Shown here: positions 15,728-40,309 of the stretch, piece after piece
How the letters are laid out: each line of letters starts with the position of its first letter
How positions within the stretch are numbered: the first letter of the stretch is position 1
Source: an uncultured archaeon
GTDB lineage: Archaea > Thermoproteota > CALKCG01 > B24
DNA: 43,825 nt
NCBI GenBank assembly: GCA_938082915.1
Contig: CALKCG010000039.1
Location: 1-43,825, forward strand
Reading direction: 5' to 3'
The notes under the pieces: model-generated
What the model was told of the DNA's origin: nothing
Databases searched by the model: none
What the model saw: the letters and a program-made list of their open reading frames with translations, nothing else
Position numbers and translations under genes: made by a program

Positions 15728-16978
15728 TCATTTTCTTTTTCTGAAGTATGCGAGTCCATCGTGGGTGAAGACGTATTCAAAGCCTGCCTCCAACAGTTTT
15801 ACTATCTCTTCCTTCGTTTGTGCTACTTTAACGTGGAATTCGTCGCTCTGCTGCTGGTAAAGTGCTTTTTCAATGGTTACGTAGATCATGGTATTTTGAA
15901 TGTTCTTATGCCCAAGCACTTCCTTGACGTGTAATATGTCCTTTGTTTTATGGTACTCTATGGTCCCCTTCCAATGTCTGAATACGTGAAATGTTATATT
16001 CTTAAGCCTTGGATTGTTAAGCTTTACAGCTAGTCTATTCCTCTGATTGATGAAGGATTTCTTCCACGACCCCTTTTTAGCTGGAAAGATCTTCTCGTTC
16101 TCCCTTGGAAGAGAATTCAACATTTCAATGAGCTTCAAGCTTATTGGCAGTATTCTAGGCTTACTCCCCTTCTCAGGGGTTATTTTAACAAGCCTCCTCT
16201 CAAAGTCCACATCCGTCCATTTCAACTTTAAGGCCTCACCGAGCCTAGCGCCCGTCTCCTTGAGAAGCTGTAGAAGCGTTGAAGTTTTCCTCCCACATCC
16301 AGCTATCAATTGGTCAAGTTCTTCTTCCGTAGGTATGAATGGTATCTTCTCTTCGACCTTAAATTTAGGCATCTCCCAGCTCCCTTTAACGAATTTCAAG
16401 AAGGTGTCGTAGGCTTTAACATAAGCCATTTTTGAAGCGTTTGAAACCTTTAAACCGGCGATGAACCTTTTAACTTCTTCAGGATCGTAGACGTTGGAGT
16501 TTTCAACGACCTTCTTCAGAAAACAGCTGTAGTTTTTAACCGTTTCCTCGGTTTTCCCCTGACTTTTAAGCCATGCTGCAAATCTTGTGACGACGCCCCC
16601 CGCGGGCTTCTCCTTCAGGGGGACGGATTCCACCTCCAACACCTTGCCCATCTCAGACCTAGAGCCCGCCGAACCTAGGTCCTCATCTCCGTCTTTAAGA
16701 TAACTGTTGGATCTATTTAAGCTCTCGGTCTCGTGGGCTTTCCTATGCTTCGAGTGTGGGTCTGTGAATCTATATCCACAGTCTCGGCATAGGTATCGTT
16801 GGACTTTAGAGCCGTCGCTTAGCTCACGCCATCCATCTCTGAATAAGCGTTCAGAGCCGCACTCTGGGCAGCTCAGCCGGTCCCCTATGGGAGCTTTACG
16901 CTCATCCCGAGGACCGGTTGAGCCTTCGCGAACATCCATTGGGTCTCCTCTTGAGACATCTGAGCCCGTCCCGCTCAC
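15728..16978 (-). CDS. int: Tyrosine recombinase/integrase with N-terminal zinc ribbon (intact, pNOB8-type organisation rather than split SSV-type)
   Basis: CPECGS...CRDCG ribbon at the N-terminus. Catalytic-domain motifs TGARLGEAL (Arg), HVFRHWKGT (H-x-x-R) and LGHKNIQNTMIYV (His/Tyr). The stop lies 4 nt from the convergent GNAT stop. Confidence 0.9.
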   Translation of the reverse strand: MSGTGSDVSRGDPMDVREGSTGPRDERKAPIGDRLSCPECGSERLFRDGWRELSDGSKVQRYLCRDCGYRFTDPHSKHRKAHETESLNRSNSYLKDGDEDLGSAGSRSEMGKVLEVESVPLKEKPAGGVVTRFAAWLKSQGKTEETVKNYSCFLKKVVENSNVYDPEEVKRFIAGLKVSNASKMAYVKAYDTFLKFVKGSWEMPKFKVEEKIPFIPTEEELDQLIAGCGRKTSTLLQLLKETGARLGEALKLKWTDVDFERRLVKITPEKGSKPRILPISLKLIEMLNSLPRENEKIFPAKKGSWKKSFINQRNRLAVKLNNPRLKNITFHVFRHWKGTIEYHKTKDILHVKEVLGHKNIQNTMIYVTIEKALYQQQSDEFHVKVAQTKEEIVKLLEAGFEYVFTHDGLAYFRKRK

Positions 16979-23926: not shown

Positions 23927-24409
23927 TCACGTTTTTATGGCAGCAATTATCTCGCCTATGGCTTTGGACACTGCTTTCGCGCTATTGTGGGAGACCAACC
24001 TCTTCTCTTGTCGATCCCCGAGCTGCTCCGTCAAATCTAGTGCGAGTTCGACCATGCTCGTCAAGTAGCGCATAAGCGGCATCCCGCCGTGGAGCATTTT
24101 ATCGAGCACCTGTGCGTGAGTCAGGGGCTTCTGTTTTGCGTATACGGCCAGTAAGAACACGGTTAACGCTAGTCCAGCACTCCATGGGACTTTTACGAGG
24201 CTTCTACCGTTTTCCTTCTCAAGCGAATACTCGATTCTATTGATGTCTAGGGTTAAGAGTATATGCTTGTAGAGTTCGGACGCCCTCTTTCCTCCTAGCG
24301 TAATGTAGTATCGTGATTCTATGCTTGGAAATTTGACTCCCATCATGCACCTCTTAGGGTTCCTCGAGTGCTTGTATATCAGCCAGTATTCGCCCTCTGT
24401 CTTGACCAT
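23927..24409 (-). CDS. hypothetical protein (160 aa), last gene of the methyltransferase/ATPase operon
   Basis: ATG start 6 nt after the upstream stop. No motif recognised. Confidence 0.6.
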   Translation of the reverse strand: MVKTEGEYWLIYKHSRNPKRCMMGVKFPSIESRYYITLGGKRASELYKHILLTLDINRIEYSLEKENGRSLVKVPWSAGLALTVFLLAVYAKQKPLTHAQVLDKMLHGGMPLMRYLTSMVELALDLTEQLGDRQEKRLVSHNSAKAVSKAIGEIIAAIKT

Positions 24410-24415
24410 GAAGTC

Positions 24416-25243
24416 TCACCCCACTATCAGCATTGTTGAGAATGGGCTTAAACACGCTTTCTCCCCCGTGAACGCGTGGAGTAGGGAGCATCCATCTGGC
24501 TCTAGGGAGACGTCATATCCGTGGTCAGATAAAACTAGGACCGTGTAGTCTTCAGATAAGATGGCTATTTCAAACGCTATATCCTCAATAACTCTATGAA
24601 GGCTGACGGACATGTCGGACGTGCTCGGAAACTTTTCATACTGAGTTCTGTGGACCAGCTCATCAATGCCTCTCAGGACGGTATACCCCGCCGCCTTAAA
24701 CCTAGTTTTGAGAGCTTCTCCTACTGTGAACATAGTCATTTTTTCAAGTTGGGATTTGAGGATTATGGAAGTCAAATACTCGTATGTCTTAGTCGCACCA
24801 CCTGGATTTATCGAATACAGTAGCCCGTCTAAGTGAATAATTTTGGAGAACCTGTCGTAAAGGTATACGTATTCTGGAAGGGATAGGCAATCGCACAAGA
24901 CTACGTATGGTTTTTTCTTACGCGTCCTAAGGGCGGATTCGACTTTTTCAATAGCGTAGAGGATGCTCCCACCTGAAAGAATTAAGCCCTCCTTGGATAG
25001 TCTGTTCATAGAACCTATAAAGGCTTTACCTATTTCAACCGACTCCTCTAGTAGAGGATTGCGGGAAACTTGCTCGCAAAACTCTGGTCTACCGTAGGCT
25101 ACGCATAAACATGTAAAAAGCATATGCGCATATCTCTTTAACGATTCATCCCTCAGGGATAGTCTAATGGATTTGGAAAGCTTAAATGCATAGTCCCTAA
25201 GCAGGCTTAGGGAGGAGGACCACTCAACCCTCAACTCATCCAC
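24416..25243 (-). CDS. Miniature PglZ-like / alkaline-phosphatase-superfamily protein (275 aa)
   Basis: The ordered motifs YVVLCDCLSLPE (metal-ligand Asp region), NPGGATKTYEYL (nucleophile Ser/Thr region) and TVLVLSDHGYD (DHG motif) reproduce the PglZ/alkaline-phosphatase core layout. GTG start overlaps the ATPase stop by 8 nt. Confidence 0.55.
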   Translation of the reverse strand: MDELRVEWSSSLSLLRDYAFKLSKSIRLSLRDESLKRYAHMLFTCLCVAYGRPEFCEQVSRNPLLEESVEIGKAFIGSMNRLSKEGLILSGGSILYAIEKVESALRTRKKKPYVVLCDCLSLPEYVYLYDRFSKIIHLDGLLYSINPGGATKTYEYLTSIILKSQLEKMTMFTVGEALKTRFKAAGYTVLRGIDELVHRTQYEKFPSTSDMSVSLHRVIEDIAFEIAILSEDYTVLVLSDHGYDVSLEPDGCSLLHAFTGEKACLSPFSTMLIVG

Positions 25244-28200
25244 CAGACTTCTTCAGCTTGATCATGTTCTCATCTACCCCTATCCTTCTAAACTGTTCAA
25301 GTATTTTCTCCCTCTTCATCCTCTCCTCAAAGTACATAGTGAGAGAGACGTTCCTCAAGTCGCCCCCAAATTTCTCTAACATATTCTTGATGTTTAATAC
25401 TTCGACCACCCTTAAGGGTAGCTTCGACAAATCGACGCTTCCCCCTCTAATGTTTGCTGAGAAGTCTACGGCTTGGATACTGCTTAGATGGGGCTCTAAC
25501 TTACCTAAATGCATCACCGTTATGGTGACGTTATTAGTTCCATATACTTCAACTACGTTGTACTCCTCTGGAGGCGGGGGTGGAAGAGCTTTTACGCGCT
25601 CTACCACGATCTTTGCATCTTCTACAGATACTTTCACCTCATTTATCTCCGGGTCTGGTAGAGGATATATGCCACTTAGTATCTTCACAGCGCTCTCAAC
25701 AGCTGATTTAGATACTGGTTTTATCGGTATCTCAGGCCACCCCTTCACTATAGATTCAACCATGTACGTGGAGTCCATTTCAAGCCTCTTACCTGCTAGA
25801 AGGTCGTGTTTATGTTTCTCTGCGTATTTCTTCACGTACTCTATGAGGCTGGCTTTTATATCCGGGGTCTTCCGTATGTTGCATTTTCCACTTACGGCGT
25901 TTAAAATCCATGCCGGCAGCTCACCGTAAACCTCCTCAAACTTATTCGCAGACCTCTCAAGCGTCACTCTCAAATCCGCGTGTGTTATGGAGTCTATCAC
26001 AGGGTCGTAGTAGACGACTGTCTTGAAGAGGCTTATGAGATTCGCCGTATAGTTGCTTATGGCCGATGAAGTTAGGCCGGCTGCGTAGCTTTCGATCTTC
26101 TTGTGCATATGCTCCATTATCTCTAAAAGCACTTCCTCAAACTCCTGCTCGCTTTCATAGTACTCCTTGAGCGTAGGTATTGTTGGAGCCCTCTTTATCA
26201 TATTAATCCTCCTACGTCTGACCTGCTCTGGCTCGCCGACTTTTAAGTAATTTATGGCGGTGGAGGCCGCGTTGACTGATGCTATGTGATTGCAGATCCT
26301 AGAGAGGTCTTCGAGTGAGACGTCGGGGATCACCATGGCGAACATGTTTATGTACGGTATTTCGCTCCTATACTTCCGGATGATTGCTTCAGCTTCCTCA
26401 ACGTAATTTACCTTGGACTTTCCTAGTAGACTCGCCTCCAACACGCTCCAAGGAGATACCGTTAGTATCGTGAACGAGTCTCTGTCGAGGAGTTCTATAA
26501 ACTCAGGCTTACCTTTGAAACTGACCACGTGCTTCATCCAATCTATCAAGTAGAGCTTTGGAGGGGCTACTTTCCCAGACTTGCTTTGGAAGAAGCTCGT
26601 CAGTGGGTACTGATTGATCATATGGTCTTTAAAGTAGTTAAGCATGGCATTATAATCCCTCTTATCAACTCCAGCTTTCTCACGTTCTTCTTTGACCGTT
26701 TGCTCTATGAGCTCAGATGGATTTGGAAGAAGAGTGATTATGTAGTGTTCTAAACCGCCATATTCAAAGCTGTGTAAATATGGCAGCTTCTTAAACTCTT
26801 CGAAGGCTTCGTTAAACTTCTTGAGGCATTCCTCCGCCACAGCGCCTATGAGCGTTGTAGCAATGTCGAGTTTTGTAGCAGCTCTAAGCTTTACCTCAGC
26901 GCTCTCGATTTTAGACAGTACCTCGGGAGCTCTTATCATATCCAGCAGTTTAACTACGTTTTCAGTTATGGACTTAGCGTAAACCGTTGACGCCATGGCT
27001 AACATAAGCTCTCTAATGTCTTCGTCCTCAATCCTCTGAATAGTGCTCTCCCATAAATCGTAGATCCTCATCCACTCTCTTGCGATGCGTTCGCTCATAA
27101 CGTAACTGAAGTCTTCAGGTGCTAAACGGGTTATACTCATAAGCGTACACTCAGTCCACTTCGTGGACGTGAGCCTATTTATCAACGACGCCGTAATCTT
27201 CAGAAGGTCCCTTATATGCTGCGACCTCGGAAGGTCTGCCCCAAAAGTGGGATGTATAAACTTCTGTAGGAGGACTTCATAGCTTGGAGAAAACGGGTAG
27301 AATTTATCAAGCCTCCCCGTGAAATTGAGGACTTCATCTTTACCGATTAAACCCGCAAACTCTTCCTCTATATGTTTTTTAAGAGTTTGCACAGCATCCT
27401 GTTTTCTGGCTTTGAACCTTAATAGCCTCAGGGCTAGTATGTTTAGGGCGTCTTCAACCCCTAGTGGCTTTAAAGTTGATGGTTTAAGTCTCCCAACTCT
27501 ATCGTTCAACTCCCCAATGGCATCTACTAAGAGTGGTATGGTCTTATCGACTTCAGAATGAATGAGGTACTTTGATACCCTAGACCATCTTTCTACGTCC
27601 TGCTGAGCGGATGCATATATGAAGACCAGCGGTACTACTCCTCTAGAGTATTCTAAAAGCTCCTTGAGAAAAGATATGAGGTCCATTAGGCTTTTGATTC
27701 TTTCAATGGAGCCCCCATCGATTGTACTACGAACTCCTCCATAGAGTTCATCTACTACGACTAGTATTGGCGTAGGCTCTCTAAGACTTGAAATAAGGGT
27801 ATTAACGGCTTCTATAGGTCTGAGCTTACTAAGGCCCCTAAGGAAGCTCGGGTCTAAGACTTTAATTCCATGAACCTTAGACTTGTGCTCCAGTATTCTA
27901 GCTGCCACCTCGAATATCGCGTCGTAGGGCTTGAACTCCTTAGGGCATCTTAACATGTCTATCGCGAAGATCAACGTTCTCTCAGCCACTCTCCTATCGT
28001 AGTCGTATTTCCAGAGGGCGTTGGGGTCCAATACTTCTCTAATGTCATCAAAGTCCCAGCGGTATGTTTGAGCATAGAGGTGCCACAATAGTGTGAGGAA
28101 GTGGGTCTTTCCAAAACCCATCTCCTGGGTTAGAGACAGAGCGACTGGAGCTTCTCGAACGACTTTAAGCCCTCCGTTGACCATTTTTAAAGCATCAGCC

Positions 28201-28418
28201 ATCGGGTCGAAGTACGTTATCGATAGAAACGTAACGGTATCTAGGAATTCGTCGCTCACTACGACGCGCGGGTCAAACAGCTCGTGTTCAATTATCATGC
28301 CGAGGCTTGGCGCGAGTCTACCCACGTACTCACCTGGACTGAGCTTGCTATAGGCTTCCACAAGCTGAGTTGGTTCGACCACATCTTTCAACCTAGGAAT
28401 GTACATGTACAACTTCAC
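25236..28418 (-). CDS. Very large P-loop ATPase, DUF499 / BrxC-PglY-class (COG1483-like)
   Basis: 1060 aa. Walker A EMGFGKTHFLTLL near residue 100, Walker B ILVVVDELYGG. GTGA overlap with the methyltransferase stop. Family call rests on size, motif placement and the characteristic pairing with a DUF1156 methylase. Confidence 0.75.
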   Translation of the reverse strand: MKLYMYIPRLKDVVEPTQLVEAYSKLSPGEYVGRLAPSLGMIIEHELFDPRVVVSDEFLDTVTFLSITYFDPMADALKMVNGGLKVVREAPVALSLTQEMGFGKTHFLTLLWHLYAQTYRWDFDDIREVLDPNALWKYDYDRRVAERTLIFAIDMLRCPKEFKPYDAIFEVAARILEHKSKVHGIKVLDPSFLRGLSKLRPIEAVNTLISSLREPTPILVVVDELYGGVRSTIDGGSIERIKSLMDLISFLKELLEYSRGVVPLVFIYASAQQDVERWSRVSKYLIHSEVDKTIPLLVDAIGELNDRVGRLKPSTLKPLGVEDALNILALRLLRFKARKQDAVQTLKKHIEEEFAGLIGKDEVLNFTGRLDKFYPFSPSYEVLLQKFIHPTFGADLPRSQHIRDLLKITASLINRLTSTKWTECTLMSITRLAPEDFSYVMSERIAREWMRIYDLWESTIQRIEDEDIRELMLAMASTVYAKSITENVVKLLDMIRAPEVLSKIESAEVKLRAATKLDIATTLIGAVAEECLKKFNEAFEEFKKLPYLHSFEYGGLEHYIITLLPNPSELIEQTVKEEREKAGVDKRDYNAMLNYFKDHMINQYPLTSFFQSKSGKVAPPKLYLIDWMKHVVSFKGKPEFIELLDRDSFTILTVSPWSVLEASLLGKSKVNYVEEAEAIIRKYRSEIPYINMFAMVIPDVSLEDLSRICNHIASVNAASTAINYLKVGEPEQVRRRRINMIKRAPTIPTLKEYYESEQEFEEVLLEIMEHMHKKIESYAAGLTSSAISNYTANLISLFKTVVYYDPVIDSITHADLRVTLERSANKFEEVYGELPAWILNAVSGKCNIRKTPDIKASLIEYVKKYAEKHKHDLLAGKRLEMDSTYMVESIVKGWPEIPIKPVSKSAVESAVKILSGIYPLPDPEINEVKVSVEDAKIVVERVKALPPPPPEEYNVVEVYGTNNVTITVMHLGKLEPHLSSIQAVDFSANIRGGSVDLSKLPLRVVEVLNIKNMLEKFGGDLRNVSLTMYFEERMKREKILEQFRRIGVDENMIKLKKSGG

Positions 28419-31400
28419 CTCTCATACAGGAGTTTAAGCACGTTTTCTATAAAGGGTTTATTTAGCCTTGTAATGCCGAACGACTTCAACTCATCCTCTC
28501 TAGCGGTTAGCAGTAGGAATAGTGCAACAGCCACAACCTGTCTACTATATGGAAATAGCGTCCTTACTCGTTCCGCGGCTCTACTGACCTCTTCGACTGC
28601 TGGAATATCCGCTAAAATTTTCGTGAGCCTTAAAGCCATGCCTGAGGCGGTTTTATCCAGGACTTCGACTCTACGCTTGATGAGTTCCAGAGCCTCTCTA
28701 CCGTAAATTACTTTACGTGAGGAGCCGCCTTTAGCCTCTAGTAGCCCAAGGTTTTTAAGTCTGTCGAGGCTCGTACCGATGACCTTACAGATTTTTTCGC
28801 CGAAGTCATATTCAACGGTCGATTCCTCTGAGAACCTTGTGGACATCCATAGGAGTAAGTAGGCCTTCGAGTCGTTATCCACTAAGAGTATGTCGTTGAC
28901 CATGTTTTCAGCCAAAGCCTCTTCAACGCCGGCCTTCTTAAAGGCCTCTTTAAGAGCGCCCTCCAGAATCCTCGAAACACCATGGTATAAAGCCACCGGG
29001 TATAGGCTTTCCCTGAAGAACTGCAGTAACATAATAAACCTATATACGTCTCCAGCGCCCAAACCCTCCGCTTCGGTAAACTCATCTATAGGTCTAACAC
29101 CACGCTTAACAGATACTGCCTCAATCGACGGGTTCCATATTCTCGTGGCACCTGCTATCGCACCGGCTAAAGCCATTATGTACTTTTCGTATTCTGAAGC
29201 TCCAGATTCTATGGCGCTCTGAAGAGCATCCACCGTGCTTGACACGATAGCCCGTTTAACGTCTTCATTTATCGATAGGTCCCTAACGTCTCTAGTGCCG
29301 ACGACTACTCTCTCGCCCGCCTTTCTAGTCACGATCGCCAAACTTGAGAAGAACGCTGACCCTGCTAACGCAACACGTCTCTCAGCCATCTCCGTCCTTA
29401 TGGTCCAAACCTTCGTGACCATGAAGCCTGAAGCGTATAGAGCGCTTAGAATGCCCTCCCAAGCCTCTGGGTCGCTGTGAGTAAACCACACTATGAGGGC
29501 GCCGTCGTCTTTGAGGCTTTTATGGGCTTCTCGGAAGAACATCCACATGTTTTTCACGTACCAATCTCTACTATGCGTCGTCTTCATGCGTTCTAAAATC
29601 TCCAGAGCACTCCTCCCTTTGGCAGAGACTTTAACGGTCTTTCTCTCTATGATTTCACCATCCCTAGGCACGGTCGATAGTATGGGACTCCAACCCGAGA
29701 CGAAAAGCTCAGCTCTACTAGGCTCACCTCTATTGAACAAATAGCCTGCGTCTATAGCAGGAGACAAAGTGACTCTTAAGACCTGCCAGAAGAACTCGCT
29801 TATATCGCTGTAGGTGTGCTGGTCGAAATACGGAGGGTCTACATTAATAACATCGACGCTCTTCTCGCCCAATATCTTAGAAAGATCCACAGCGTCGGCC
29901 ATCAGAACCTTAACCCTATCGCCTAAGCCTCCGACCCAAGAGCACAAGTGCTTGAGCACGGGGCATATACCACCATGGGTCTTAGTAGGCTCTTCGACGT
30001 CAGGCTCAAAAACCCAGCCCAGTGATTTGTGAGGGTCTTCAACTATGGGAGGCATTTCACAGTATTCGAGACCAAGACCTATCTTTCTTGTTCTTGCATA
30101 GTGGTCCATAAGTTCTCTTATGGTTCTGGTAGTATCGTCCCATGTAGTTGTAATGTTATTAAAATTCATCAGTTTATCAATGCCAAAAGCTAAATAGAAA
30201 ATACCAGCTAATCTGAACTCCGCTTTTTCATCAATTGATTCTTTAATCCTTGCTCTGACGTATTTTACCAGCTTCATCAAAATTAAAAGCTGCCTCGGAT
30301 TGAATAGCTCATACCAGTAATCTATCCCCAGGTCTGTCACAGGCTTGAATACTTCGTTCTCGGCTTTGTATATTGGGTCTGATGGTATGTAGTCTTTGAG
30401 CTCTTCGCTCAGCCTAGTTAGGTCTAGGTATGCCTCGGTAAACCTCTCCACGTCTTCCTTCGCTGCTGCCTTAAACCCCCTCTTAGTCTGCTTGACGAGT
30501 AGGATGTGTGTCCGATTGAGCTCTTCAACAGATTCTTTGGCTGATTTGAAGTCCCCGCTCAAAGCGGTCTTCAAGAGCCTCTTATGCCTTGAAACCCAGT
30601 CTCGAAGGGCAACTTCCTCTACTACTGGAGCCTTGCAGTACGGGCACCTAAGCCTGGTAAACTCTGCCTCCACTTCGGAGATATCCACCGCGAAGCTCTT
30701 CTTCTCCCCATCGAAGCTGAACTTTATATACGGTCCATTCTTCCCAAGTCTCGTAGTATGTATTATCGGAATCAAGCCTCCGCAGGATTTACACATATAC
30801 CCTCTGGCGATTATATAGTTCATAGCATCCTCAGGATAGTACTTCCCAAGTTCCTTCCTAGCCCAACCTATGAGCCTCTCAGCCTCAGCCTTAACCTCCT
30901 CGTAAAGCCTCACACCATATTTGGCAGGGTACTCAAGCGTGGCCTTGAGGATCAAGTAGGCGACGGGGTTGTACTCCATAGCAACCGTCCTAAAGCCAAG
31001 CCTCAAAGCCTCCAAAGGAATAGAGCCACCACCAGCCATAGGGTCTACGATGAGTATTTCACTAGAATTCTTGCCTATTTTTTCCTTCAAGACGTCATCT
31101 AGATGCCTTCTTTTAGGATTTGAATTAAGGAGTATTGGCAGAATTTTTTGTGTGGCTAAGTCAGATATATCATTAAAACCAACAATTTCTCTAAAGAGGT
31201 CTTTACTGAAATTATGGGGAAGAATAGCAGCTAGATTGAGTATTCTTGAAAGTGCCATCGGGCGCCTCGCAAACCAAGGATGGAGATTATTTGGCTGCGG
31301 GGTTCCTACGTTAAGCACCGTTGGATCTACACTATACAGACTTAAAAATTGAGGCCTGTACTTGTTCCTCGAAATTCTGAATGAAATCTCAATGGCTGCG

Positions 31401-31456
31401 TGGAGATTCATTTCTGATAGAGGAAGCCATTCTTCAACAAGCCTTCTAAAAGACAT
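28415..31456 (-). CDS. DUF1156-type Zn-ribbon-containing DNA methyltransferase (COG1743-like; N6-adenine/N4-cytosine class)
   Basis: 1013 aa. DUF1156 signature NLHPWFARRPMALSRIL, SAM motif I IVDPMAGGGSIPLEALRLG, ribbon CKSCGG...CPYCKAPV, catalytic motif IV VINVDPPYFD. GGAGG lies 8 nt upstream of the ATG. Confidence 0.9.
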   Translation of the reverse strand: MSFRRLVEEWLPLSEMNLHAAIEISFRISRNKYRPQFLSLYSVDPTVLNVGTPQPNNLHPWFARRPMALSRILNLAAILPHNFSKDLFREIVGFNDISDLATQKILPILLNSNPKRRHLDDVLKEKIGKNSSEILIVDPMAGGGSIPLEALRLGFRTVAMEYNPVAYLILKATLEYPAKYGVRLYEEVKAEAERLIGWARKELGKYYPEDAMNYIIARGYMCKSCGGLIPIIHTTRLGKNGPYIKFSFDGEKKSFAVDISEVEAEFTRLRCPYCKAPVVEEVALRDWVSRHKRLLKTALSGDFKSAKESVEELNRTHILLVKQTKRGFKAAAKEDVERFTEAYLDLTRLSEELKDYIPSDPIYKAENEVFKPVTDLGIDYWYELFNPRQLLILMKLVKYVRARIKESIDEKAEFRLAGIFYLAFGIDKLMNFNNITTTWDDTTRTIRELMDHYARTRKIGLGLEYCEMPPIVEDPHKSLGWVFEPDVEEPTKTHGGICPVLKHLCSWVGGLGDRVKVLMADAVDLSKILGEKSVDVINVDPPYFDQHTYSDISEFFWQVLRVTLSPAIDAGYLFNRGEPSRAELFVSGWSPILSTVPRDGEIIERKTVKVSAKGRSALEILERMKTTHSRDWYVKNMWMFFREAHKSLKDDGALIVWFTHSDPEAWEGILSALYASGFMVTKVWTIRTEMAERRVALAGSAFFSSLAIVTRKAGERVVVGTRDVRDLSINEDVKRAIVSSTVDALQSAIESGASEYEKYIMALAGAIAGATRIWNPSIEAVSVKRGVRPIDEFTEAEGLGAGDVYRFIMLLQFFRESLYPVALYHGVSRILEGALKEAFKKAGVEEALAENMVNDILLVDNDSKAYLLLWMSTRFSEESTVEYDFGEKICKVIGTSLDRLKNLGLLEAKGGSSRKVIYGREALELIKRRVEVLDKTASGMALRLTKILADIPAVEEVSRAAERVRTLFPYSRQVVAVALFLLLTAREDELKSFGITRLNKPFIENVLKLLYER

Positions 31457-31515: not shown

Positions 31516-32262
31516 TTAACCATGAGCTTCACCTTCCATGCACTTTGGACATATATGCATTATCGGGCATATGTCGCACTCCGGCTTCTCCCTGCAGTAG
31601 TAGAAGCCTATGTGCCACAGTCCAGCGTCCAGTGCCATAGGTGGCACCTTAAACTTCATCCTGACGACCTTATCGGCTTCCTCTAGTGTTGCATCCTTTG
31701 GTATGATGTGCGTCCTTTCTAAAACTCTCATGACTGGGTCTGCTGGCGATAGGTTTACGTTCTTAATATCGAGCTTAATTATATCGGCTAATCTGAGTTC
31801 TCTGACTATCCCCGGTGCCAAGACCGGTCCTATGCCGGGTAGCTTACTGAGGTCGTTTTCTAGAATCTTAGCATCCGTGAATTTGGCGAAATATTTGACT
31901 AGGCTTCCTCCATTATTTACGGCTATACTCACCAACTCTCTGAAGAACCTTAAAAGCCCTGCAAACCCTCCATGGGGATTAAACCTTGGTATAGTCCTAG
32001 CCACGCCTACTACGGCTTCTTCCACTCTACTGATCCCGTGTTTTTGATTTATTTCAAGTAGACGCTCAAGGGAGATCATCCTCGCAAACTCGTCTAAAGC
32101 GTGCTCGGGGGTTCCAGTAGGCCATTGATAGGTTCTCCAACAGATTTGGAATGCTGCCTCTTCTGAGCCTAACCTGTCTACCATGTCTAAGAGCTCCATC
32201 CTATACTCATCAGTCTTCATCAAGCAGAACCTTGTGAGCTCGTCTATTAAGGCCTGGCTCAT
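31516..32262 (-). CDS. Endonuclease-III-like helix-hairpin-helix protein with C-terminal Fe-S cluster loop (putative DNA glycosylase/lyase-like)
   Basis: HhH motif LSKLPGIGPVLAPGIV, followed by SPADPVMRVLERTHII (position of the EndoIII VDTH-x-x-RV segment). C-terminal C-x5-C-x2-C-x5-C (CREKPECDICPIMHIC) compares with EndoIII C-x6-C-x2-C-x5-C. ATGA overlap with the upstream wHTH gene. Confidence 0.65.
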   Translation of the reverse strand: MSQALIDELTRFCLMKTDEYRMELLDMVDRLGSEEAAFQICWRTYQWPTGTPEHALDEFARMISLERLLEINQKHGISRVEEAVVGVARTIPRFNPHGGFAGLLRFFRELVSIAVNNGGSLVKYFAKFTDAKILENDLSKLPGIGPVLAPGIVRELRLADIIKLDIKNVNLSPADPVMRVLERTHIIPKDATLEEADKVVRMKFKVPPMALDAGLWHIGFYYCREKPECDICPIMHICPKCMEGEAHG

Positions 32263-34224: not shown

Positions 34225-36546
34225 TCACGTACCCAATTTTAACATCCACCTCTCCACTCCATTTCTCTTTTCAACCTCCACTCCTCTGCTCCGCCTTTTT
34301 AATAGCTCTTTAAGCTCTTGCTTGAAAAGTTCGTCGGGCATGAAAATCCTGATAGCTCTTTCATACATTACCATCGATTTATCGCCATGCTTTTTCCACT
34401 TTTTCACTGGAGAGGATGACGTACATTTGAGACCCCTTTTCTCCGCCAGTTTACGTATTTCGCTACTGAGCTCATCAAGCCTTTTATAACACTTGCGCCG
34501 CTTGGCACCGGTACTGATGACTACTATTTGAAGCTCTGGTGGCTTCAAAGTAGTAGGAGTGGAACGTTGGCGGATTAATCGCCATTCTTTTAAGGGTTCT
34601 TCCACCTCCAGTCCTTCTTTATACGCGAAGACTCCTCCTCTTTCTTTAACGTAGGATAGAAACTCGGACAGTAGACCCTCAGAGCATCGATTAATAGAAT
34701 TGGAATTTCCCACAACTATGAGCTTGCATCTAGCCCTCGTAAAGGCGACGTTGAGCCTGTTAGGGTCTTCGACAAAGGATAGGCTTGAAGTGGCGGTGAC
34801 ACTAAATATTATGACATCCTTCTCCCTACCTTGGAAGGCATCTACAGTATTTACTTCTATTTCGTCGTCCTCTAAAGATTCCCTTAACTTACGCATCTGA
34901 GACTTAAATGGTGTAATAACACCTATCTGAGCACTATGAATACCGAGACTTTTCAATGCAAAGACCACTCTCTCGATGGCCTCAACTTCTAGTGGATTAT
35001 ACTTGGACCTCCCCTCGACTACTTCAGACCCCTCCACCTCTAGGAACACGACAGGCCTCTCGGGGTTTAGAAATTCTAAATCGGCTGGAGGCCGTCTTTT
35101 CAAACTGAGCTTTATGCCTCTGCACGCCTCAACGGGAGTTATCTTCCCTTCGTAGATGTACCTTTGTGAGAACCCTATGATATCGCTGTTACTCCTATAG
35201 TGCCATCTGAGCCACAGAGCTCTATTTCCATAGGTATCCAGCATATGGCAAAAAGCGCTCAGCTCTTTCTGAACATCTTCTTTTTCGGTCTTAAAAATCG
35301 GTAGTAATTGCTTATGATCTCCTATGAGGACCCACTTGTTAGCCTTAATCATTCCAAGCAGGGCTAATATTATGGATGCTTGACTGCACTCATCTATTAA
35401 AGCTACGTCAAACCTCTCATTCGCCAGAGGATATAGCTGAGACTTTATTAGCGTAGACCCGATGATATTAGCGGCTTTTACAAGCCTCTCGCTTTCAGCT
35501 CTAAGCATTCTGTTCCTTTCTTCAAATAGCATCCTAAGCTCTTGCCTCAGACTAACGCCCTTATCCCTGATGCTAGAATACTTATCTTTAAACCCAACTT
35601 CATACCATTCTCTCCTGAGCTCGTAGAGCCCTTTAATGTTCCTCCTCAATGCATCTATTTTGTTCTCCAATTCTTCAAGTTTAGCTCCAAGTGCCGTCCT
35701 CCTAGCCTTATAGCTTAAAAGATAGGGTCTTACGTTTTTCAGAACTTTCTCAGGTCTACCGACCCTAAGGGACTCTTCAACTGGTAAGATTTCGATGGCG
35801 TTGTCCACTGCCCTATTCGTGTGAGAGGCTATCAGAACCCTTTCACCCCTTTTAGAGAGCTCGTAGGCAGCCTTGGCTATGACCCTGGTCTTGCCAGTAC
35901 CGGGAGGCCCTATGATCAAAAGGAGTTCACTGTCATTTAGACCTAAAATATGTTCAATCGCGTCTACTTGAGAGCTGTCAAGTTGAAACTTTCCGCTCAA
36001 GTCCATTCTATCGTTGAGAGTTACTCTGCGAGGTAGGGGCATATCTACGGCATTTAGCATTACTTGAACAGCCTTCATCTCCACCTGGTCGAGCTCTCCA
36101 GTCACTATCCTGTCTATAAGCTCTAGCTGTAAGTCGTAACCAACGAGGACTTCAGCTTCGCATAGCTCTATAGACTCACCCTCCTTCAAGTCCGTAGGTT
36201 TAAACAGCCCTATGGTGGATACGGTACCACTAGCTATGACGGTTCCGAGGGGCTCTATTCCTTTTAATGGGCTTAGGCGACCTACAACGTCGCCTTCTTC
36301 AAACCTAGGAAAGCTGCATTCGATTGTAACAGCTTCATCTTCTACATCGAGGACCTCGCCTTTAACACGTTCCGTAATTGCCCTCTTCTTTTCCTCGTTT
36401 CTCTCATTTAAGAGAAGTCTTTTCATGAATTTTAAAAGCTCATTTAAGTCATCGAACAGAGTGCTCTTACCGCACTTCCAACACTTGATGGAGTCAGGTG
36501 TGATTCTCATTCCACATCTGGGGCAAAACTTCAACGATCCCTTCAC
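34225..36546 (-). CDS. Superfamily-1 helicase of the Upf1/Dna2-like (AAA_11/AAA_12) type with N-terminal zinc ribbon
   Basis: 773 aa. CPRCG...CWKCG ribbon, Walker A IIGPPGTGKTR, Walker B DVALIDECSQ, LIGDHKQLLP (motif III), long coiled-coil insertion, VNTVDAFQGREKDVIIFS and NVAFTRAR (motifs V/VI). Confidence 0.9.
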   Translation of the reverse strand: MKGSLKFCPRCGMRITPDSIKCWKCGKSTLFDDLNELLKFMKRLLLNERNEEKKRAITERVKGEVLDVEDEAVTIECSFPRFEEGDVVGRLSPLKGIEPLGTVIASGTVSTIGLFKPTDLKEGESIELCEAEVLVGYDLQLELIDRIVTGELDQVEMKAVQVMLNAVDMPLPRRVTLNDRMDLSGKFQLDSSQVDAIEHILGLNDSELLLIIGPPGTGKTRVIAKAAYELSKRGERVLIASHTNRAVDNAIEILPVEESLRVGRPEKVLKNVRPYLLSYKARRTALGAKLEELENKIDALRRNIKGLYELRREWYEVGFKDKYSSIRDKGVSLRQELRMLFEERNRMLRAESERLVKAANIIGSTLIKSQLYPLANERFDVALIDECSQASIILALLGMIKANKWVLIGDHKQLLPIFKTEKEDVQKELSAFCHMLDTYGNRALWLRWHYRSNSDIIGFSQRYIYEGKITPVEACRGIKLSLKRRPPADLEFLNPERPVVFLEVEGSEVVEGRSKYNPLEVEAIERVVFALKSLGIHSAQIGVITPFKSQMRKLRESLEDDEIEVNTVDAFQGREKDVIIFSVTATSSLSFVEDPNRLNVAFTRARCKLIVVGNSNSINRCSEGLLSEFLSYVKERGGVFAYKEGLEVEEPLKEWRLIRQRSTPTTLKPPELQIVVISTGAKRRKCYKRLDELSSEIRKLAEKRGLKCTSSSPVKKWKKHGDKSMVMYERAIRIFMPDELFKQELKELLKRRSRGVEVEKRNGVERWMLKLGT

Positions 36547-37142
36547 CTGTTGGAGGGTAAATCCAAGATTTTAGTATACTTGTCCAGTCTCCTAACAGCC
36601 CATACGAAGTCCCTCATCTTTGAGATGAATTCTCCCTTTAACCTATCTAGTTCAACCTCTCTATCAGCAGGATGCAATTTACTCGACGTTATAACTTCTT
36701 CTATCCTATGGGCTATCGAGTGTATCTCCTCGTCTAATCTCTGAAGCCCTTCCCTCAAAGAGGGTGGTATTGCTTCAATCTGTTTGACTATAAGTTTTTG
36801 TAAAACTTGCATAGCCTCTTCTTCTTTAAGACGAAACCTTTTCTCTCTTAGAAAGGAGAGCTCTTCAGACGCTTTCGTAATCACGCCTATGACATTCCAA
36901 TTAACTCTTACTTGGGCTGGAAAACGCCCACCCCAAGCCTCGGGCTCGACATTATATCCCCCATCACAACTGGCGGTAAACGGTCCGAAAAGCACATCCG
37001 TTTCAATGTTGTATAGAAAGAGAGTATCACCCTTTTTAACTTCCTTTACGGATTCCCACATTCTCTCAGTATCTCCGAAGAGCCTCCTCTGAAAGCACTC
37101 GGCCTCTGTTTCCTTTTTGCAGATAAACTTCCAGTACATCAT
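36543..37142 (-). CDS. DCD-domain (PUA/EVE-like superfamily) protein with C-terminal coiled coil
   Basis: YWKFICKKETEAECFQRRLFG ... KKGDTLFLYNIETDVLFGPFTASCDGGYNVEPEAWGGRFPAQVRV reproduces the DCD signature blocks (FG, LFLYN, G-x-F-x-A, FPAQVR). ATGA-type 4-nt overlap with the helicase start. GGAGG upstream. Confidence 0.8.
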   Translation of the reverse strand: MMYWKFICKKETEAECFQRRLFGDTERMWESVKEVKKGDTLFLYNIETDVLFGPFTASCDGGYNVEPEAWGGRFPAQVRVNWNVIGVITKASEELSFLREKRFRLKEEEAMQVLQKLIVKQIEAIPPSLREGLQRLDEEIHSIAHRIEEVITSSKLHPADREVELDRLKGEFISKMRDFVWAVRRLDKYTKILDLPSNR

Positions 37143-38975: not shown

Positions 38976-39161
38976 TTGATGTCAGAAGTCTCAGAGAAGC
39001 TATTGACAACGGGTGAAGTAGCCAGAAGGCTTCAAGTCAGCATAAAAACGGTTCAGAGGTGGGTTAAAGAGGGGAGGCTCAGAGCGATAAAGTATCCAAG
39101 TGGTCGTTTCAAAGTCCCCGAGAGCGAGGTTGAGAAAATATGGGAGTCGTTAAGGCAGTAG
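38976..39161 (+). CDS. Excisionase/MerR-type HTH protein (61 aa), resembling the N-terminal DNA-binding domain of IS607-type TnpA without a recombinase domain
   Basis: LLTTGEVARRLQVSIKTVQRWVKEGRLRAIKYPSGRFKVPESEVEKI. Its end overlaps the tnpB start by 22 nt. Confidence 0.7.
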   Translation: MMSEVSEKLLTTGEVARRLQVSIKTVQRWVKEGRLRAIKYPSGRFKVPESEVEKIWESLRQ

Positions 39162-40309
39162 TTTTCAAGCATAATGCTGACGTCAAACCACTACTTGAGA
39201 TGTTCAACGGAATGGTCAATGAATGCATGGAATATGCTTTGAGGCAGGGCGTCAACTCGCCGATGAAACTCGAGAGGGCATTGTATACTGAATTTAAACA
39301 GAAGCATGGGCTAGCCACTCACTACTGTATATCAGCTTGTAGAGTGGCTTGCTCAGCTTTAAAGTCTTGGAGGAGGCTTGTGAAGAAGGGAAGGGCTGAC
39401 GAAAGTAAGCCTCCAGAGTTTAAAGCGTTTGTGATGAGGCTTCAGAAGGAACTCATGAGGTTTAAAGGCGATAGGATAGTTGTAACGGTGAAACCACGTC
39501 AATGGGTTGAAATCCCTCTGATAATCGGCTCGTATCAGGCTCGATTCTTTGAGGCTTGGAGAAAGGGGGAGCTTAAACTGGGTGAAATAACGCTTTTAGA
39601 GGATAAAGCAATAGCGACTTTCAAGAAAGAGGTTCAAGAGGTTGCTCCTAAAGGCTATGCTTCAATAGACGTCAACTTGATGAGCCTAGACATTTTGAAG
39701 ACTGATGGCAAATCCCTAAGGTGTGAGAAAATAGATTTGAAGAAGCTCTACGGAATAAGAGTCCACTACTTCAAGAAGCGCAGGAGAATTCAGAAGCTGA
39801 GCAAGTGCAAGCCTAAAACATCTAAGCGGCTCATGGAAAAATACTCTAAACGTGAAAAGAGGAGGATAGACGACATCCTTCATAAGATTACGGCAAATAT
39901 TGTTAGAGAACTTGTTAAGGAAGGTATTTCACCAGTCTTTGAAAAGCTTAAAGGATTGAATTACAACGCTACGAGGAATCGCCATGCGAAGCGTAAGAAT
40001 CGCAAAGTTTCATCGTTGCCATATTGGAAGATTCAAAGATTCATAGAGTATAAGATGGCCTGGCACGGCTATAAAACTCATTATGTTAATGCAAAAAACA
40101 CAAGCAAGACTTGCCCGAGATGCGGGAGTCTATCCCAAGCTGGAGGGCGTGTCTACAAATGTAATAAGTGCGGCTACCTAGCGGATAGACACTTCGTCGC
40201 ATGCGTGAACATACTCAAGATGTGGGGACTCGGGTTCACCCCGAAAGCCCTCAATGAGTTCATCGAGAGGGAAGAGTTACGTATGTCTATAAATGACTAC
40301 GTAACTTGA
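39140..40309 (+). CDS. tnpB: TnpB-like RNA-guided endonuclease (IS200/IS605-IS607 OrfB family)
   Basis: 389 aa. RuvC-I ASIDVNLMS, RuvC-II PVFEKLKGL, zinc finger CPRCGS...CNKCG, RuvC-III LADRHFVACVNIL. The catalytic D/E/D residues appear intact. Confidence 0.9.
   Translation: MGVVKAVVFKHNADVKPLLEMFNGMVNECMEYALRQGVNSPMKLERALYTEFKQKHGLATHYCISACRVACSALKSWRRLVKKGRADESKPPEFKAFVMRLQKELMRFKGDRIVVTVKPRQWVEIPLIIGSYQARFFEAWRKGELKLGEITLLEDKAIATFKKEVQEVAPKGYASIDVNLMSLDILKTDGKSLRCEKIDLKKLYGIRVHYFKKRRRIQKLSKCKPKTSKRLMEKYSKREKRRIDDILHKITANIVRELVKEGISPVFEKLKGLNYNATRNRHAKRKNRKVSSLPYWKIQRFIEYKMAWHGYKTHYVNAKNTSKTCPRCGSLSQAGGRVYKCNKCGYLADRHFVACVNILKMWGLGFTPKALNEFIEREELRMSINDYVT

Follow-up and report, generated by a model that had tools for sequence, protein, structure and literature searches.

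In the 43,825-nucleotide stretch of archaeal DNA analysed here (hereafter, the window), the gene at 24416..25243 on the minus strand encodes a miniature PglZ that we take to be the final enzyme of a BREX-related cassette of four genes, acting by the mechanism proposed below; we put the probability of this reading at roughly two in three. By analogy with characterised systems, this protein, here termed mini-PglZ, is probably the DNA-cutting part of a compact antiviral cassette.

How BREX stops phages is still debated, partly because PglZ is a large multi-domain protein in a six-protein complex. The cassette described here is a simpler version of BREX, comprising four genes from thermophilic archaea and a PglZ that consists of a helical bundle and a bare catalytic core. 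It offers a tractable setting in which to ask what PglZ-dependent restriction minimally requires, how a BrxC/DUF499 ATPase licenses PglZ, and whether PglZ truly replaces the helicase-nuclease effector of the canonical DUF499 systems.

The mini-PglZ gene and its family

The open reading frame at 24416-25243 is read from the minus strand, the plus-strand translation being riddled with stop codons. From a GTG start at 25243 it encodes 275 amino acids, and the three motifs on which the original prediction was based, VVLCDCLSLPE, NPGGATKTYEYL and VLVLSDHGYD, are present on this strand in the order given there. The motifs are non-random, since they form invariant blocks across a family of proteins of about 270 residues. 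We found 22 close homologues, and a search among 1.84 billion proteins returned 74 representatives at E<=1e-3; family members range in length from 219 to 312 amino acids, with a median of 270.

The stated overlap of 8 nt with the gene for a giant ATPase upstream is real: the TGA of the 1060-residue ORF (25236-28418, minus strand) occupies 25238-25236, and the GTG of mini-PglZ stands at 25243, so that the two genes share GTGGATGA. There is an alternative start, a TTG at 25234, three codons downstream, which yields a protein of 272 amino acids and leaves a 1-nt gap to the ATPase gene; this is the start called for many of the mini-PglZ homologues. Under either start, the ATPase and mini-PglZ genes are tightly coupled. 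Residues below are numbered on the 275-residue ORF unless the 272-residue form is specified; a position in the latter plus 3 gives the position in the former.

Predicted fold and catalytic residues

The AlphaFold2 (AF2) model of mini-PglZ (pLDDT 86.8, pTM 0.89) has an N-terminal five-helix bundle (approximately residues 1-106), after which comes a catalytic core of the alkaline-phosphatase/NPP (AP/NPP) type, about 165 residues long. When the model was compared with the PDB using Foldseek, the top 16 matches were all PglZ-domain chains from PorX, a response regulator of type IX secretion (PDB 7pv7, 8tef; E-values from 4e-6 to 7.5e-4 and probabilities as high as 1.0), with the BREX PglZ chain 9zn5_B at rank 17, followed by MCR-1/EptA, alkaline phosphatase and iPGM. 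The PglZ-like identity suggested originally is thus borne out by the fold, and the conserved residues and gene context, described below, agree with it. TM-scores are low (0.37-0.45) and rmsd values large because the domains are differently oriented and the target has double the length.

In an alignment of 64 family members reaching down to about 18% identity, D115, N143, T148 and D191 never vary, and conservation is at least 90% at G146, H195, the D237-H238-G-Y-D241 block and H253 (272-residue numbering). Among these is an ordered set of seven residues, D118 (codon at 24892-24890), T151 (24793-24791), D194 (24664-24662), H198 (24652-24650), D240 (24526-24524), H241 (24523-24521) and H256 (24478-24476; all minus strand), each invariant or at least 90% conserved. 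They match, in the same order, the seven ligands of PorX (D239, T272, D361, H365, D415, H416 and H500; PMC9757075), with an identical spacing of 33 residues between the Asp and the Thr, a D-x3-H pair and an adjacent DH pair; the full series of spacings is 33/43/4/42/1/15 in mini-PglZ versus 33/89/4/50/1/84 in PorX. We predict that mini-PglZ is a two-metal phosphodiesterase in which D118, D240 and H241 would form site one and D194, H198 and H256 site two, with T151 as the nucleophile.

An hhalign comparison with an alignment of nine BREX PglZ domains is compatible with the same assignment (E 2e-5 to 9e-5, probability 60-76%). In the 272-residue numbering, it pairs D115 with D503 of Escherichia fergusonii PglZ, D191/H195 with D617/D621 and D237-H238 with D661-H662, thereby matching the Asp, DxxxH and DHG blocks, while the nucleophile block is mis-registered by 5 residues. 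With the cap excised, H253-x aligns with H741-G as predicted; the score is no better than that of a control excision, and this alignment is accordingly a consistency check only.

The PglZ cap, a beta-rich subdomain that is elsewhere inserted between strand 5 and helix 6, is reduced in the model to a single hairpin (strands 241-245 and 248-252, 272-residue numbering) with no helix 6. The interval from H241 to H256 spans only 15 residues, as against 84 in PorX and 79 in E. fergusonii PglZ. Most of the cap, which in PorX lines the active site and contacts the dimer interface, is therefore missing from mini-PglZ, as is the N-terminal domain by which BREX PglZ binds BrxB.

At the sequence level, mini-PglZ does form the separate family that had been suggested, since the Pfam PglZ model misses nearly all of its members: PF08665 recognises none of the close homologues and one of the 64 sequences overall, weakly (E 1.6e-3). 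It does not match mini-PglZ itself even at E 0.1, and a six-frame search of the whole genome with PF08665 gave nothing at E<=1. Likewise, none of the models in Pfam, NCBIfam, PADLOC and PHROGs matches mini-PglZ. When the PDB was searched by sequence, using the protein alone and two profiles, it returned designer repeat and helical proteins through many tiny summed matches, which we discarded as spurious, and ENPP4 and ENPP7 in the profile search at a non-significant E of 0.1-0.2.

Gene content of the cassette

The cassette, transcribed on the minus strand, begins with a gene for a DUF1156-type N6-adenine DNA methyltransferase of 1013 amino acids (28415..31456), with DPMAGGGS as its SAM motif (residue 138) and DPPY as its catalytic motif (residue 540). 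Pfam matches are to DUF1156 (24.5 bits against a cut-off of 24) and UPF0020; in PADLOC the protein matches MTase_II (2e-47), HmaB of the Hma system (5e-32) and DUF1156_MTase, and its match to the NCBIfam 'anti-phage-associated DUF1156' model (8e-33) lies below that model's cut-off. The gene overlaps the start of the following one by 4 nt. This second gene (25236..28418) encodes the 1060-residue protein, a divergent DUF499/BrxC-class AAA+ ATPase with a Walker A motif GFGKTH at residue 101 and a Walker B motif VVVDEL at 220. On its P-loop region PF04465 scores 22.8 bits, versus a cut-off of 23; the homologues P0121 and P0136 carry PF04465, and homologues with this domain stand at 30-35% identity. 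The original proposal of a minimal PglZ core paired with a BrxC-class ATPase is supported by this assignment and by bona fide BrxL genes in sister loci (see below).

Mini-PglZ is followed, 6 nt past its stop codon, by the final gene of the cassette (23927..24409, minus strand), which encodes a protein of 160 amino acids with an orphan fold, here called p160. Its AF2 model (pLDDT 89.8) has the topology b1-b2-b3-a1-b4-b5-a2-a3-a4-a5, which is not a P-loop fold. Foldseek found no structural neighbour at E<=1e-3 in the PDB, 9zn5 with its BrxB included, or in BFVD, and no family match was obtained in four HMM libraries. We rejected the identification of p160 as BrxB or another inactive STAND protein, given an hhalign probability of 0.1% against E. 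fergusonii BrxB and no Foldseek or HMM match. As an analogue of MtsB (DUF3780), p160 was likewise rejected at the sequence level, its HMM missing the genes of about 145 residues in 20 canonical DUF499 loci. It is a candidate scaffold or co-regulator.

All four ORFs are intact, as are the Walker A and B, DPPY and SAM motifs. PADLOC and Pfam found no BrxA, BrxB, BrxC, PglX or BrxL in the window. A co-directional gene of 248 amino acids (31516..32262, minus strand) adjoins the cassette upstream, with weak signatures of an EndoIII/MutY-like Fe-S helix-hairpin-helix protein (EndoIII_4Fe-2S, 0.033; TIGR01084 mutY, 0.0022). The only helicase in the window is of SF1 (AAA_11/AAA_12), at 34225-36546, about 2.8 kb from the cassette and coupled to a DCD gene. 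We rejected it as the missing helicase; it lies outside the operon, is missing from the closest related locus (L019) and is not conserved with the cassette. The genome as a whole, at 72% completeness, yielded no SNF2-family gene.

Related loci and the ATPase lineage

The order methyltransferase, DUF499-like ATPase, mini-PglZ, p160 is kept in 10 of the 13 related loci that we examined, down to an ATPase identity of about 31%, and p160 lies downstream of mini-PglZ in 12 of them. Twelve of the 13 have no helicase within 10 kb, the one with an adjacent DEAD/Helicase_C gene being L036. In three sister loci (L034, L035 and L107) a short BrxL gene adjoins mini-PglZ.

The ATPases linked to mini-PglZ, that of the window included, form one separate, strongly supported group in the tree (100/99), whose members always come with a mini-PglZ. 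Within it, the ten loci with the four-gene form, drawn from several archaeal lineages, make up a sub-clade (100/100). Pfam DUF499 leaves this ATPase lineage mostly undetected. The Pfam, PADLOC and NCBIfam models for PglZ and DUF499 thus miss the clade, so that surveys based on them under-count BREX-related systems in the Thermoproteota.

Among the DUF499-class loci examined, mini-PglZ and helicase-nucleases are mutually exclusive. The phylum's 20 canonical DUF499 loci gave no PglZ match, and the four partner genes checked from them all encode SNF2 helicases that carry a fused nuclease domain, NOV_C or PLD. Elsewhere in the phylum, Pfam PglZ matches ORFs of 364-495 amino acids in 8 of 301 genomes. 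We considered these as canonical stand-alone PglZ genes and rejected them as unrelated, because they lie in syntenic housekeeping surroundings with no DUF499 or methyltransferase gene.

Relationship to known PglZ and DUF499 systems

The PglZ of the type-1 BREX system on E. fergusonii pEFER has 885 amino acids (PMC12205998), and mini-PglZ is about one third of that length. The two have in common a helical segment and, after it, an AP/NPP core with equivalent Asp, Thr, D-x3-(H/D), DH and His-Gly motifs, and both are encoded beside a BrxC-class ATPase and an N6-adenine methyltransferase, with BrxL adjoining in the sister loci of mini-PglZ. Absent from mini-PglZ are the inactive Swi2/Snf2 domain that binds BrxB at the N-terminus, the HTH modules, the beta-sandwich at the C-terminus and the greater part of the cap. 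The methyltransferase here is DUF1156-type, whereas type-1 BREX has PglX, and neither BrxA nor BrxB can be recognised; the cassette therefore lacks the six-gene set of type-1 BREX (BrxA, BrxB, BrxC, PglX, multi-domain PglZ and BrxL). The background given with the original prediction, that the role of the phosphatase-fold domain of PglZ is unclear, is outdated, BREX PglZ having been identified as a metal-dependent nuclease in 2025, an activity that is abolished in the E. fergusonii protein by T538A (PMC12205998).

PorX, the best structural match, also has a helical bundle packed on its catalytic domain. It differs in its receiver domain, in a beta-rich cap that is complete (84 residues from H416 to H500) and in its signalling role, and it cleaves oligonucleotides rather than serving in defence.

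The closest published gene arrangement is Type-3 BR, reported in January 2026 from 569 taxa, in which stand-alone PglZ genes lie beside genes for DUF499 ATPases and DUF1156 methyltransferases and are read as an effector swap (Rakesh & Krishnan, NAR; PMC12839542). Consequently, the idea of a minimal PglZ working with such an ATPase, although supported by our results, is not new. Type-3 BR and the present cassette both encode an AAA+ ATPase of the DUF499 class and a DUF1156 N6-adenine methyltransferase, together with a single-domain PglZ that has a gene of its own and retains all of its metal ligands; neither has a nuclease fused to a helicase, and both are well represented in archaea. However, a BrxHII-like SF2 helicase without a nuclease is the third core gene of Type-3 BR, and this cassette has no such gene. 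An inactive-STAND gene (BrxB-like; BrxB/BrxF-like) is present in 82% of Type-3 BR loci, whereas none is recognisable here, p160 resembling neither BrxB nor a P-loop protein. The Type-3 BR PglZ has a three-stranded cap, in contrast to the one hairpin of mini-PglZ, with its 15 residues between the DH pair and the last His. Finally, the ATPases of the present group belong to a lineage separate from canonical DUF499. So small a version, and one without a helicase, seems to be a variant not described before.

With MANTIS/BR type 2 (Gao_RL) and Hma, the cassette shares a core composed of a DUF499 ATPase, a small orphan-fold partner and an N6-adenine methyltransferase, although MtsB (DUF3780), the small partner in MANTIS, has no detectable similarity to p160. 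In MANTIS/BR types 1-2 and Hma the effector is a fusion of an SF2 helicase with a PLD or PD-(D/E)XK nuclease, which is absent from this locus. In MANTIS, which provides a tested model for ATPase-loaded hemimethylation (bioRxiv 10.64898/2026.09.23.753747), the effector is MtsD, an HKD-nuclease/SF2-helicase fusion; its counterpart here would, by analogy, be mini-PglZ.

Proposed function and alternative explanations

By analogy with BREX and with MANTIS, a biochemically characterised BR type-2 system, we infer the following sequence of steps. The ATPase, possibly aided by p160 as a small co-regulator, would load the methyltransferase onto short asymmetric sites and so mark host DNA. On unmodified invader DNA, the same complex would license mini-PglZ to nick or cut. 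Mini-PglZ would in this way fill the place held in canonical DUF499 systems by the SNF2 helicase-nuclease fusion, and its occurrence, among DUF499-class loci, where the helicase-nuclease is absent fits the swap of one effector for another.

That PglZ is the restriction effector is unsettled even for BREX, because PglZ mutants keep substantial defence (PMC12205998). Mini-PglZ could thus be a true PglZ-type phosphodiesterase that is not the DNA-cutting effector, acting perhaps as a degrader of nucleotide or oligonucleotide signals, or as a structural or regulatory subunit for methylation, with restriction left to another factor or to a block of replication. PorX, its closest structural match, is an oligonucleotide phosphodiesterase active on cyclic and linear oligoadenylates and pGpG; BREX PglZ itself cleaves cA6 and pApA, is inhibited by NTPs, and retains much of the defence in catalytic mutants (PMC12205998); and PglZ is among the components required for self-methylation in type-1 BREX (PMC12839542). 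Mini-PglZ is also devoid of every DNA-binding accessory domain of BREX PglZ. Yet the cassette has no conserved gene for a cyclase or for any other producer of a signal, and the absence of the helicase-nuclease where mini-PglZ occurs fits an exchange of effectors; we regard this explanation as unlikely, if worth keeping in view. A broader doubt is whether the protein is a PglZ at all, or instead a generic minimal member of the alkaline-phosphatase superfamily (a phosphatase, phosphotransferase or sulfatase-like enzyme) that resembles PglZ through a shared core and not through common descent. The D/T(S)/D-H/D-H/H ligand pattern is common to the whole superfamily, the Foldseek matches to MCR-1/EptA, alkaline phosphatase and iPGM reach E 2e-3 to 3e-2, Pfam Sulfatase weakly matches one family member, and the ENPP4/ENPP7 matches are of the same kind. 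Against these, the E-values of the PglZ-domain structures are better than those of the other matches by 2-3 orders of magnitude, the helical bundle at the N-terminus has a parallel in the helical linker found ahead of the PglZ domain in both PorX and BREX PglZ, and the gene always occurs within methyltransferase/DUF499-type cassettes, three of them with BrxL, a context specific to BREX. A generic enzyme is therefore decidedly improbable.

The cassette might also be what is left, in decay or no longer functional, of a larger BREX-like system whose helicase or BrxL has been lost, its small PglZ being now without function. Sister loci do have BrxL or a helicase, two related loci (L019 and L007) have a methyltransferase ORF broken into two, and the same genome carries a degraded second copy on contig C187. 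The four ORFs of the window, however, are intact with their catalytic motifs retained, the catalytic residues are invariant across the mini-PglZ family, and decay would not have kept a coherent ten-locus sub-clade across several archaeal lineages at ATPase identities as low as about 31%; we give this possibility very little credence. On the preferred reading, of mini-PglZ as the cutting component, a more far-reaching proposal can be made tentatively, with the odds somewhat against it: that the four genes would provide self-sufficient, helicase-free BREX-like immunity whose sole nuclease is the PglZ core of about 165 residues acting via p160 as an adaptor, that the ATPase lineage stands as far apart from canonical DUF499 as BrxC does and constitutes an unclassified fourth BrxC/DUF499 branch, and that this is the smallest natural PglZ-based defence module.

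Genomic setting

No tRNA gene that could mark an integration site lies within the window, and a tblastn search of plasmids with the ATPase found nothing. The window does contain an integrase gene and a rise in GC content, the marks of an island; the cassette is located on a GC-rich integrated mobile island in a hot-spring archaeon of the Bathyarchaeia type.

Predicted structure and active site of the mini-PglZ

The small PglZ-like protein (mini-PglZ) is encoded on the minus strand at 24416-25243, and translation of this 275-aa ORF from its GTG start confirmed the ordered motifs VVLCDCLSLPE, NPGGATKTYEYL and VLVLSDHGYD; the plus-strand translation is riddled with stops. The 8-nt overlap claimed with the upstream ATPase gene is real (shared sequence GTGGATGA), as the mini-PglZ GTG lies at 25243 and the upstream 1060-aa ORF (25236-28418, minus strand) ends in a TGA at 25238-25236. 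An alternative TTG start three codons downstream, used in the gene calls of many homologues, gives 272 aa and a 1-nt gap; with either start codon the two genes are tightly coupled.

The AlphaFold2 model, computed from an alignment of the family, is confident (pLDDT 86.8, pTM 0.89) and consists of a five-helix bundle (approximately residues 2-103) followed by an alpha/beta domain (residues 109-271). In a Foldseek search of the PDB, 16 PorX chains ranked on top (E 4e-6 to 7.5e-4, probability up to 1.0), followed by the Acinetobacter BREX PglZ (9zn5_B, E 1.6e-3) and then by MCR-1/EptA, alkaline phosphatase and iPGM. TM-scores stayed modest (0.37-0.45), as the targets have twice the length and their domains are placed differently.

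The metal ligands of the PorX PglZ domain are D239, T272, D361, H365, D415, H416 and H500, with the topology ...b5-cap-a6-b6 (PMC9757075). Comparison of metal-ligand and nucleophile positions showed that all seven recur, in unchanged order, in the mini-PglZ family (candidate catalytic residues D118, T151, D194, H198, D240, H241 and H256, in 275-aa ORF numbering; other residue numbers given for the family are those of the 272-aa form, three lower). The successive intervals in the family and in PorX are 33 and 33 (D to T), 43 and 89 (T to D), 4 and 4 (D to H), 42 and 50 (H to D), 1 and 1 (the adjacent D-H pair) and 15 and 84 (H to the last H), with two inserts shorter in the mini-PglZ. The 15-residue interval is the site of the PorX/BREX cap subdomain, which the model predicts to be a single beta-hairpin, with helix 6 absent.

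We also used hhalign to compare the family with nine BREX PglZ domains taken from annotated plasmids; one of the nine is the E. fergusonii pEFER enzyme, which has been characterised biochemically. The match (E 2e-5 to 9e-5, probability 60-76%) pairs the b1 Asp block with D503, the D-x3-H block with D617 and D621, and the DHG block with D661-H662 (E. fergusonii numbering), with the nucleophile block five residues out of register. Excision of the cap paired H253 with H741 at a score no better than that of a control excision, and serves as a consistency check, not as proof.

A family missed by current models

The mini-PglZ had no match in the Pfam, PADLOC, NCBIfam or PHROGs model libraries; current annotation models are blind to it. 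Sequence matches in the PDB were to repeat proteins only and were discarded as artefacts. A word-indexed search found 22 homologues, all archaeal, 270-277 aa long and labelled "hypothetical" (hosts: Methanodesulfokora, Bathyarchaeia, Nitrososphaerota, Metallosphaera and Desulfurococcus). When 1.84 billion representatives were searched exhaustively with a profile, just 74 relatives reached E<=1e-3, nearly all of 220-290 aa and none of them a long BREX-type PglZ. Within the phylum, the family occurs in 9/401 genomes and 8/161 genera. Among 64 members compared (median length 270 aa, identities as low as ~18%), D115, N143, T148 and D191 never vary, and G146, H195, D237-H238-G-Y-D241 and H253 each reach 90% conservation or more.

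Weak Pfam PglZ matches (26-35 bits, DHG region only) occur elsewhere in the Thermoproteota (L050-L056; genomes G102, G059, G225, G288, G138 and G011). These genes are syntenic, encode 364-495 aa and are without defence neighbours; they probably represent a housekeeping alkaline-phosphatase-superfamily enzyme cross-matched by the PglZ model.

Composition of the cassette

Upstream lies a 1013-aa DUF1156-type N6-adenine methyltransferase (MTase; Pfam DUF1156 and UPF0020; PADLOC MTase_II 2e-47, HmaB 5e-32) with DPPY and SAM motifs. In the 1060-aa protein both Walker motifs (A and B) are intact. Its Pfam DUF499 score, 22.8 bits, falls just under the cut-off of 23, and PF04465 is carried by homologues sharing 30-35% identity with it; by sequence it is a divergent DUF499/BrxC-class ATPase. 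The last gene (23927-24409, minus strand) encodes a 160-aa protein, p160, with a confident AlphaFold model (pLDDT 89.8; b1-b2-b3-a1-b4-b5-a2-a5). As modelled, p160 is an orphan fold, because it has no significant structural neighbour in PDB or BFVD and no family match across four HMM libraries; nor was similarity to BrxB found.

We annotated 13 related loci with HMMs built in this analysis; p160 is kept in 12 of them, and the four-gene form (MTase, DUF499-like ATPase, mini-PglZ, p160) was found in ten related loci. Three divergent loci, including a distant metagenomic one (L107), have a short BrxL of ~473 aa inserted between the ATPase and mini-PglZ (L034:10473-11900, minus; L035:8137-9552, plus; L107:2939-4366, plus), with BrxL_N and BrxL_ATPase (E about 1e-111) and without a C-terminal Lon or HKD domain. 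In L036 a DEAD/Helicase_C gene lies immediately upstream of the MTase, and L037, in a complete 1.3-Mb genome, consists of only three genes, one of them for a 228-aa mini-PglZ.

The MTase frame is split in two loci, L019 (3794-6820, plus) and L007 (6997-9991, plus), into 729+276 aa and 839+184 aa, with the remaining cassette genes intact. These include the closest relative, of the same genus; the split may reflect inactivation, phase variation or assembly error. A degraded second copy lies on another contig of the same assembly (L039 on C187, 1450-2184, minus) beside an unrelated 134-aa ORF, and is reduced to C-terminal pieces of mini-PglZ (81 aa) and p160 (77 aa).

Putative effector and ATPase lineage

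Pfam DUF499 matches occur in 64/401 genomes of the phylum, and in almost none of the mini-PglZ-bearing ones. The original prediction proposed a size survey of PglZ homologues beside DUF499 genes; the 20 canonical loci surveyed gave no PglZ-like match. Beside the canonical ATPases stand a DUF1156 MTase, a gene of ~145 aa and a large gene; in each of the four loci (out of 20) where it was checked, the large gene encodes a SNF2 helicase fused to a NOV_C or PLD nuclease domain. These loci correspond to published BREX-related (BR) types 1 and 2. No SNF2-family gene was found in the archaeon's own genome (72% complete). In a maximum-likelihood ATPase tree, whose root is not fixed, the 14 mini-PglZ-linked proteins form one group (100/99), canonical DUF499 a second (97/97) and BrxC a third. 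Within the first, the three-gene, helicase and BrxL forms diverge earliest, and all ten four-gene cassettes fall in one derived sub-clade (100/100), the root again not fixed. Effector type thus varies together with ATPase lineage (4/20 canonical partners checked), as would be expected if mini-PglZ takes the place of the helicase-nuclease.

In two canonical loci (L087:5068-7999, minus, and L088), an AAA_5 (McrB-like) ATPase of 548 aa and a 433-aa protein stand beside the ATPase in place of an SNF2 helicase-nuclease, perhaps a further exchange of effectors among DUF499 systems.

Relation to known systems and likely function

The pairing of a minimal PglZ core with a BrxC-class ATPase is thus supported by the PorX and BREX PglZ structural matches, the seven residues and the divergent DUF499 neighbour. 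The idea has already been published: DUF499-centred systems were termed "BREX-related" by Rakesh and Krishnan (NAR, January 2026; PMC12839542), whose Type 3 unites an ATPase (DUF499) and an MTase (DUF1156) with a nuclease-free BrxHII-like helicase and a stand-alone active PglZ. This PglZ occurs in 569 taxa (134 archaeal), with an inactive-STAND protein in 82% of loci, and the authors argue that it replaces the nuclease (PMC12839542). Compared with Type 3 as published, the mini-PglZ clade lacks the helicase and a recognisable inactive-STAND protein, would have only a hairpin in place of the three-stranded cap, and has an ATPase lineage below the Pfam DUF499 threshold. The concept is therefore not new, and among natural PglZ modules seen here the cassette is the most reduced.

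Two experimental studies, of BREX PglZ and of MANTIS (BR type 2), are the best guides to mechanism. BREX PglZ nicks and cuts as a metal-dependent nuclease, loses this activity with T538A, and binds BrxB via an N-terminal domain (PMC12205998) that is absent from mini-PglZ. In MANTIS, loading of the MTase for hemimethylation and licensing of the effector both fall to the DUF499 ATPase together with a small co-regulator of orphan fold; its authors note that this part may be played by other proteins in related systems (bioRxiv 10.64898/2026.09.23.753747). The reading we favor, at roughly two chances in three, is a compact BR/BREX-like restriction-modification cassette that does without a helicase and uses a catalytically competent mini-PglZ as its effector. 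The main competing view, that the protein is a PglZ-type phosphodiesterase serving in signalling or assembly and not as the killing nuclease, we consider unlikely.

Genomic setting

GC content is 45-49% in the block that holds the cassette and 40-42% on either side of it. The left edge of the block is marked by a tyrosine integrase (15728-16978, minus; Phage_integrase 4e-23), and a TnpB/Cas12f-like OrfB_IS605 gene (39140-40309, plus) lies near its right side; no tRNA gene was found in the window. The window's sole helicase, of SF1 type (AAA_11/AAA_12, Upf1/Dna2-like; 773 aa), is encoded by a gene that overlaps one for a 199-aa DCD-domain protein ("development and cell death", EVE/PUA-like) at 34225-37142 (minus). 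We rejected it as a cassette member, as it is coupled to the DCD gene, outside the operon and not conserved with the cassette; the two genes appear to form an independent modification-reader/helicase module within the island. Other defence-type genes lie near the cassette in the window, and toxin-antitoxin genes flank related loci.
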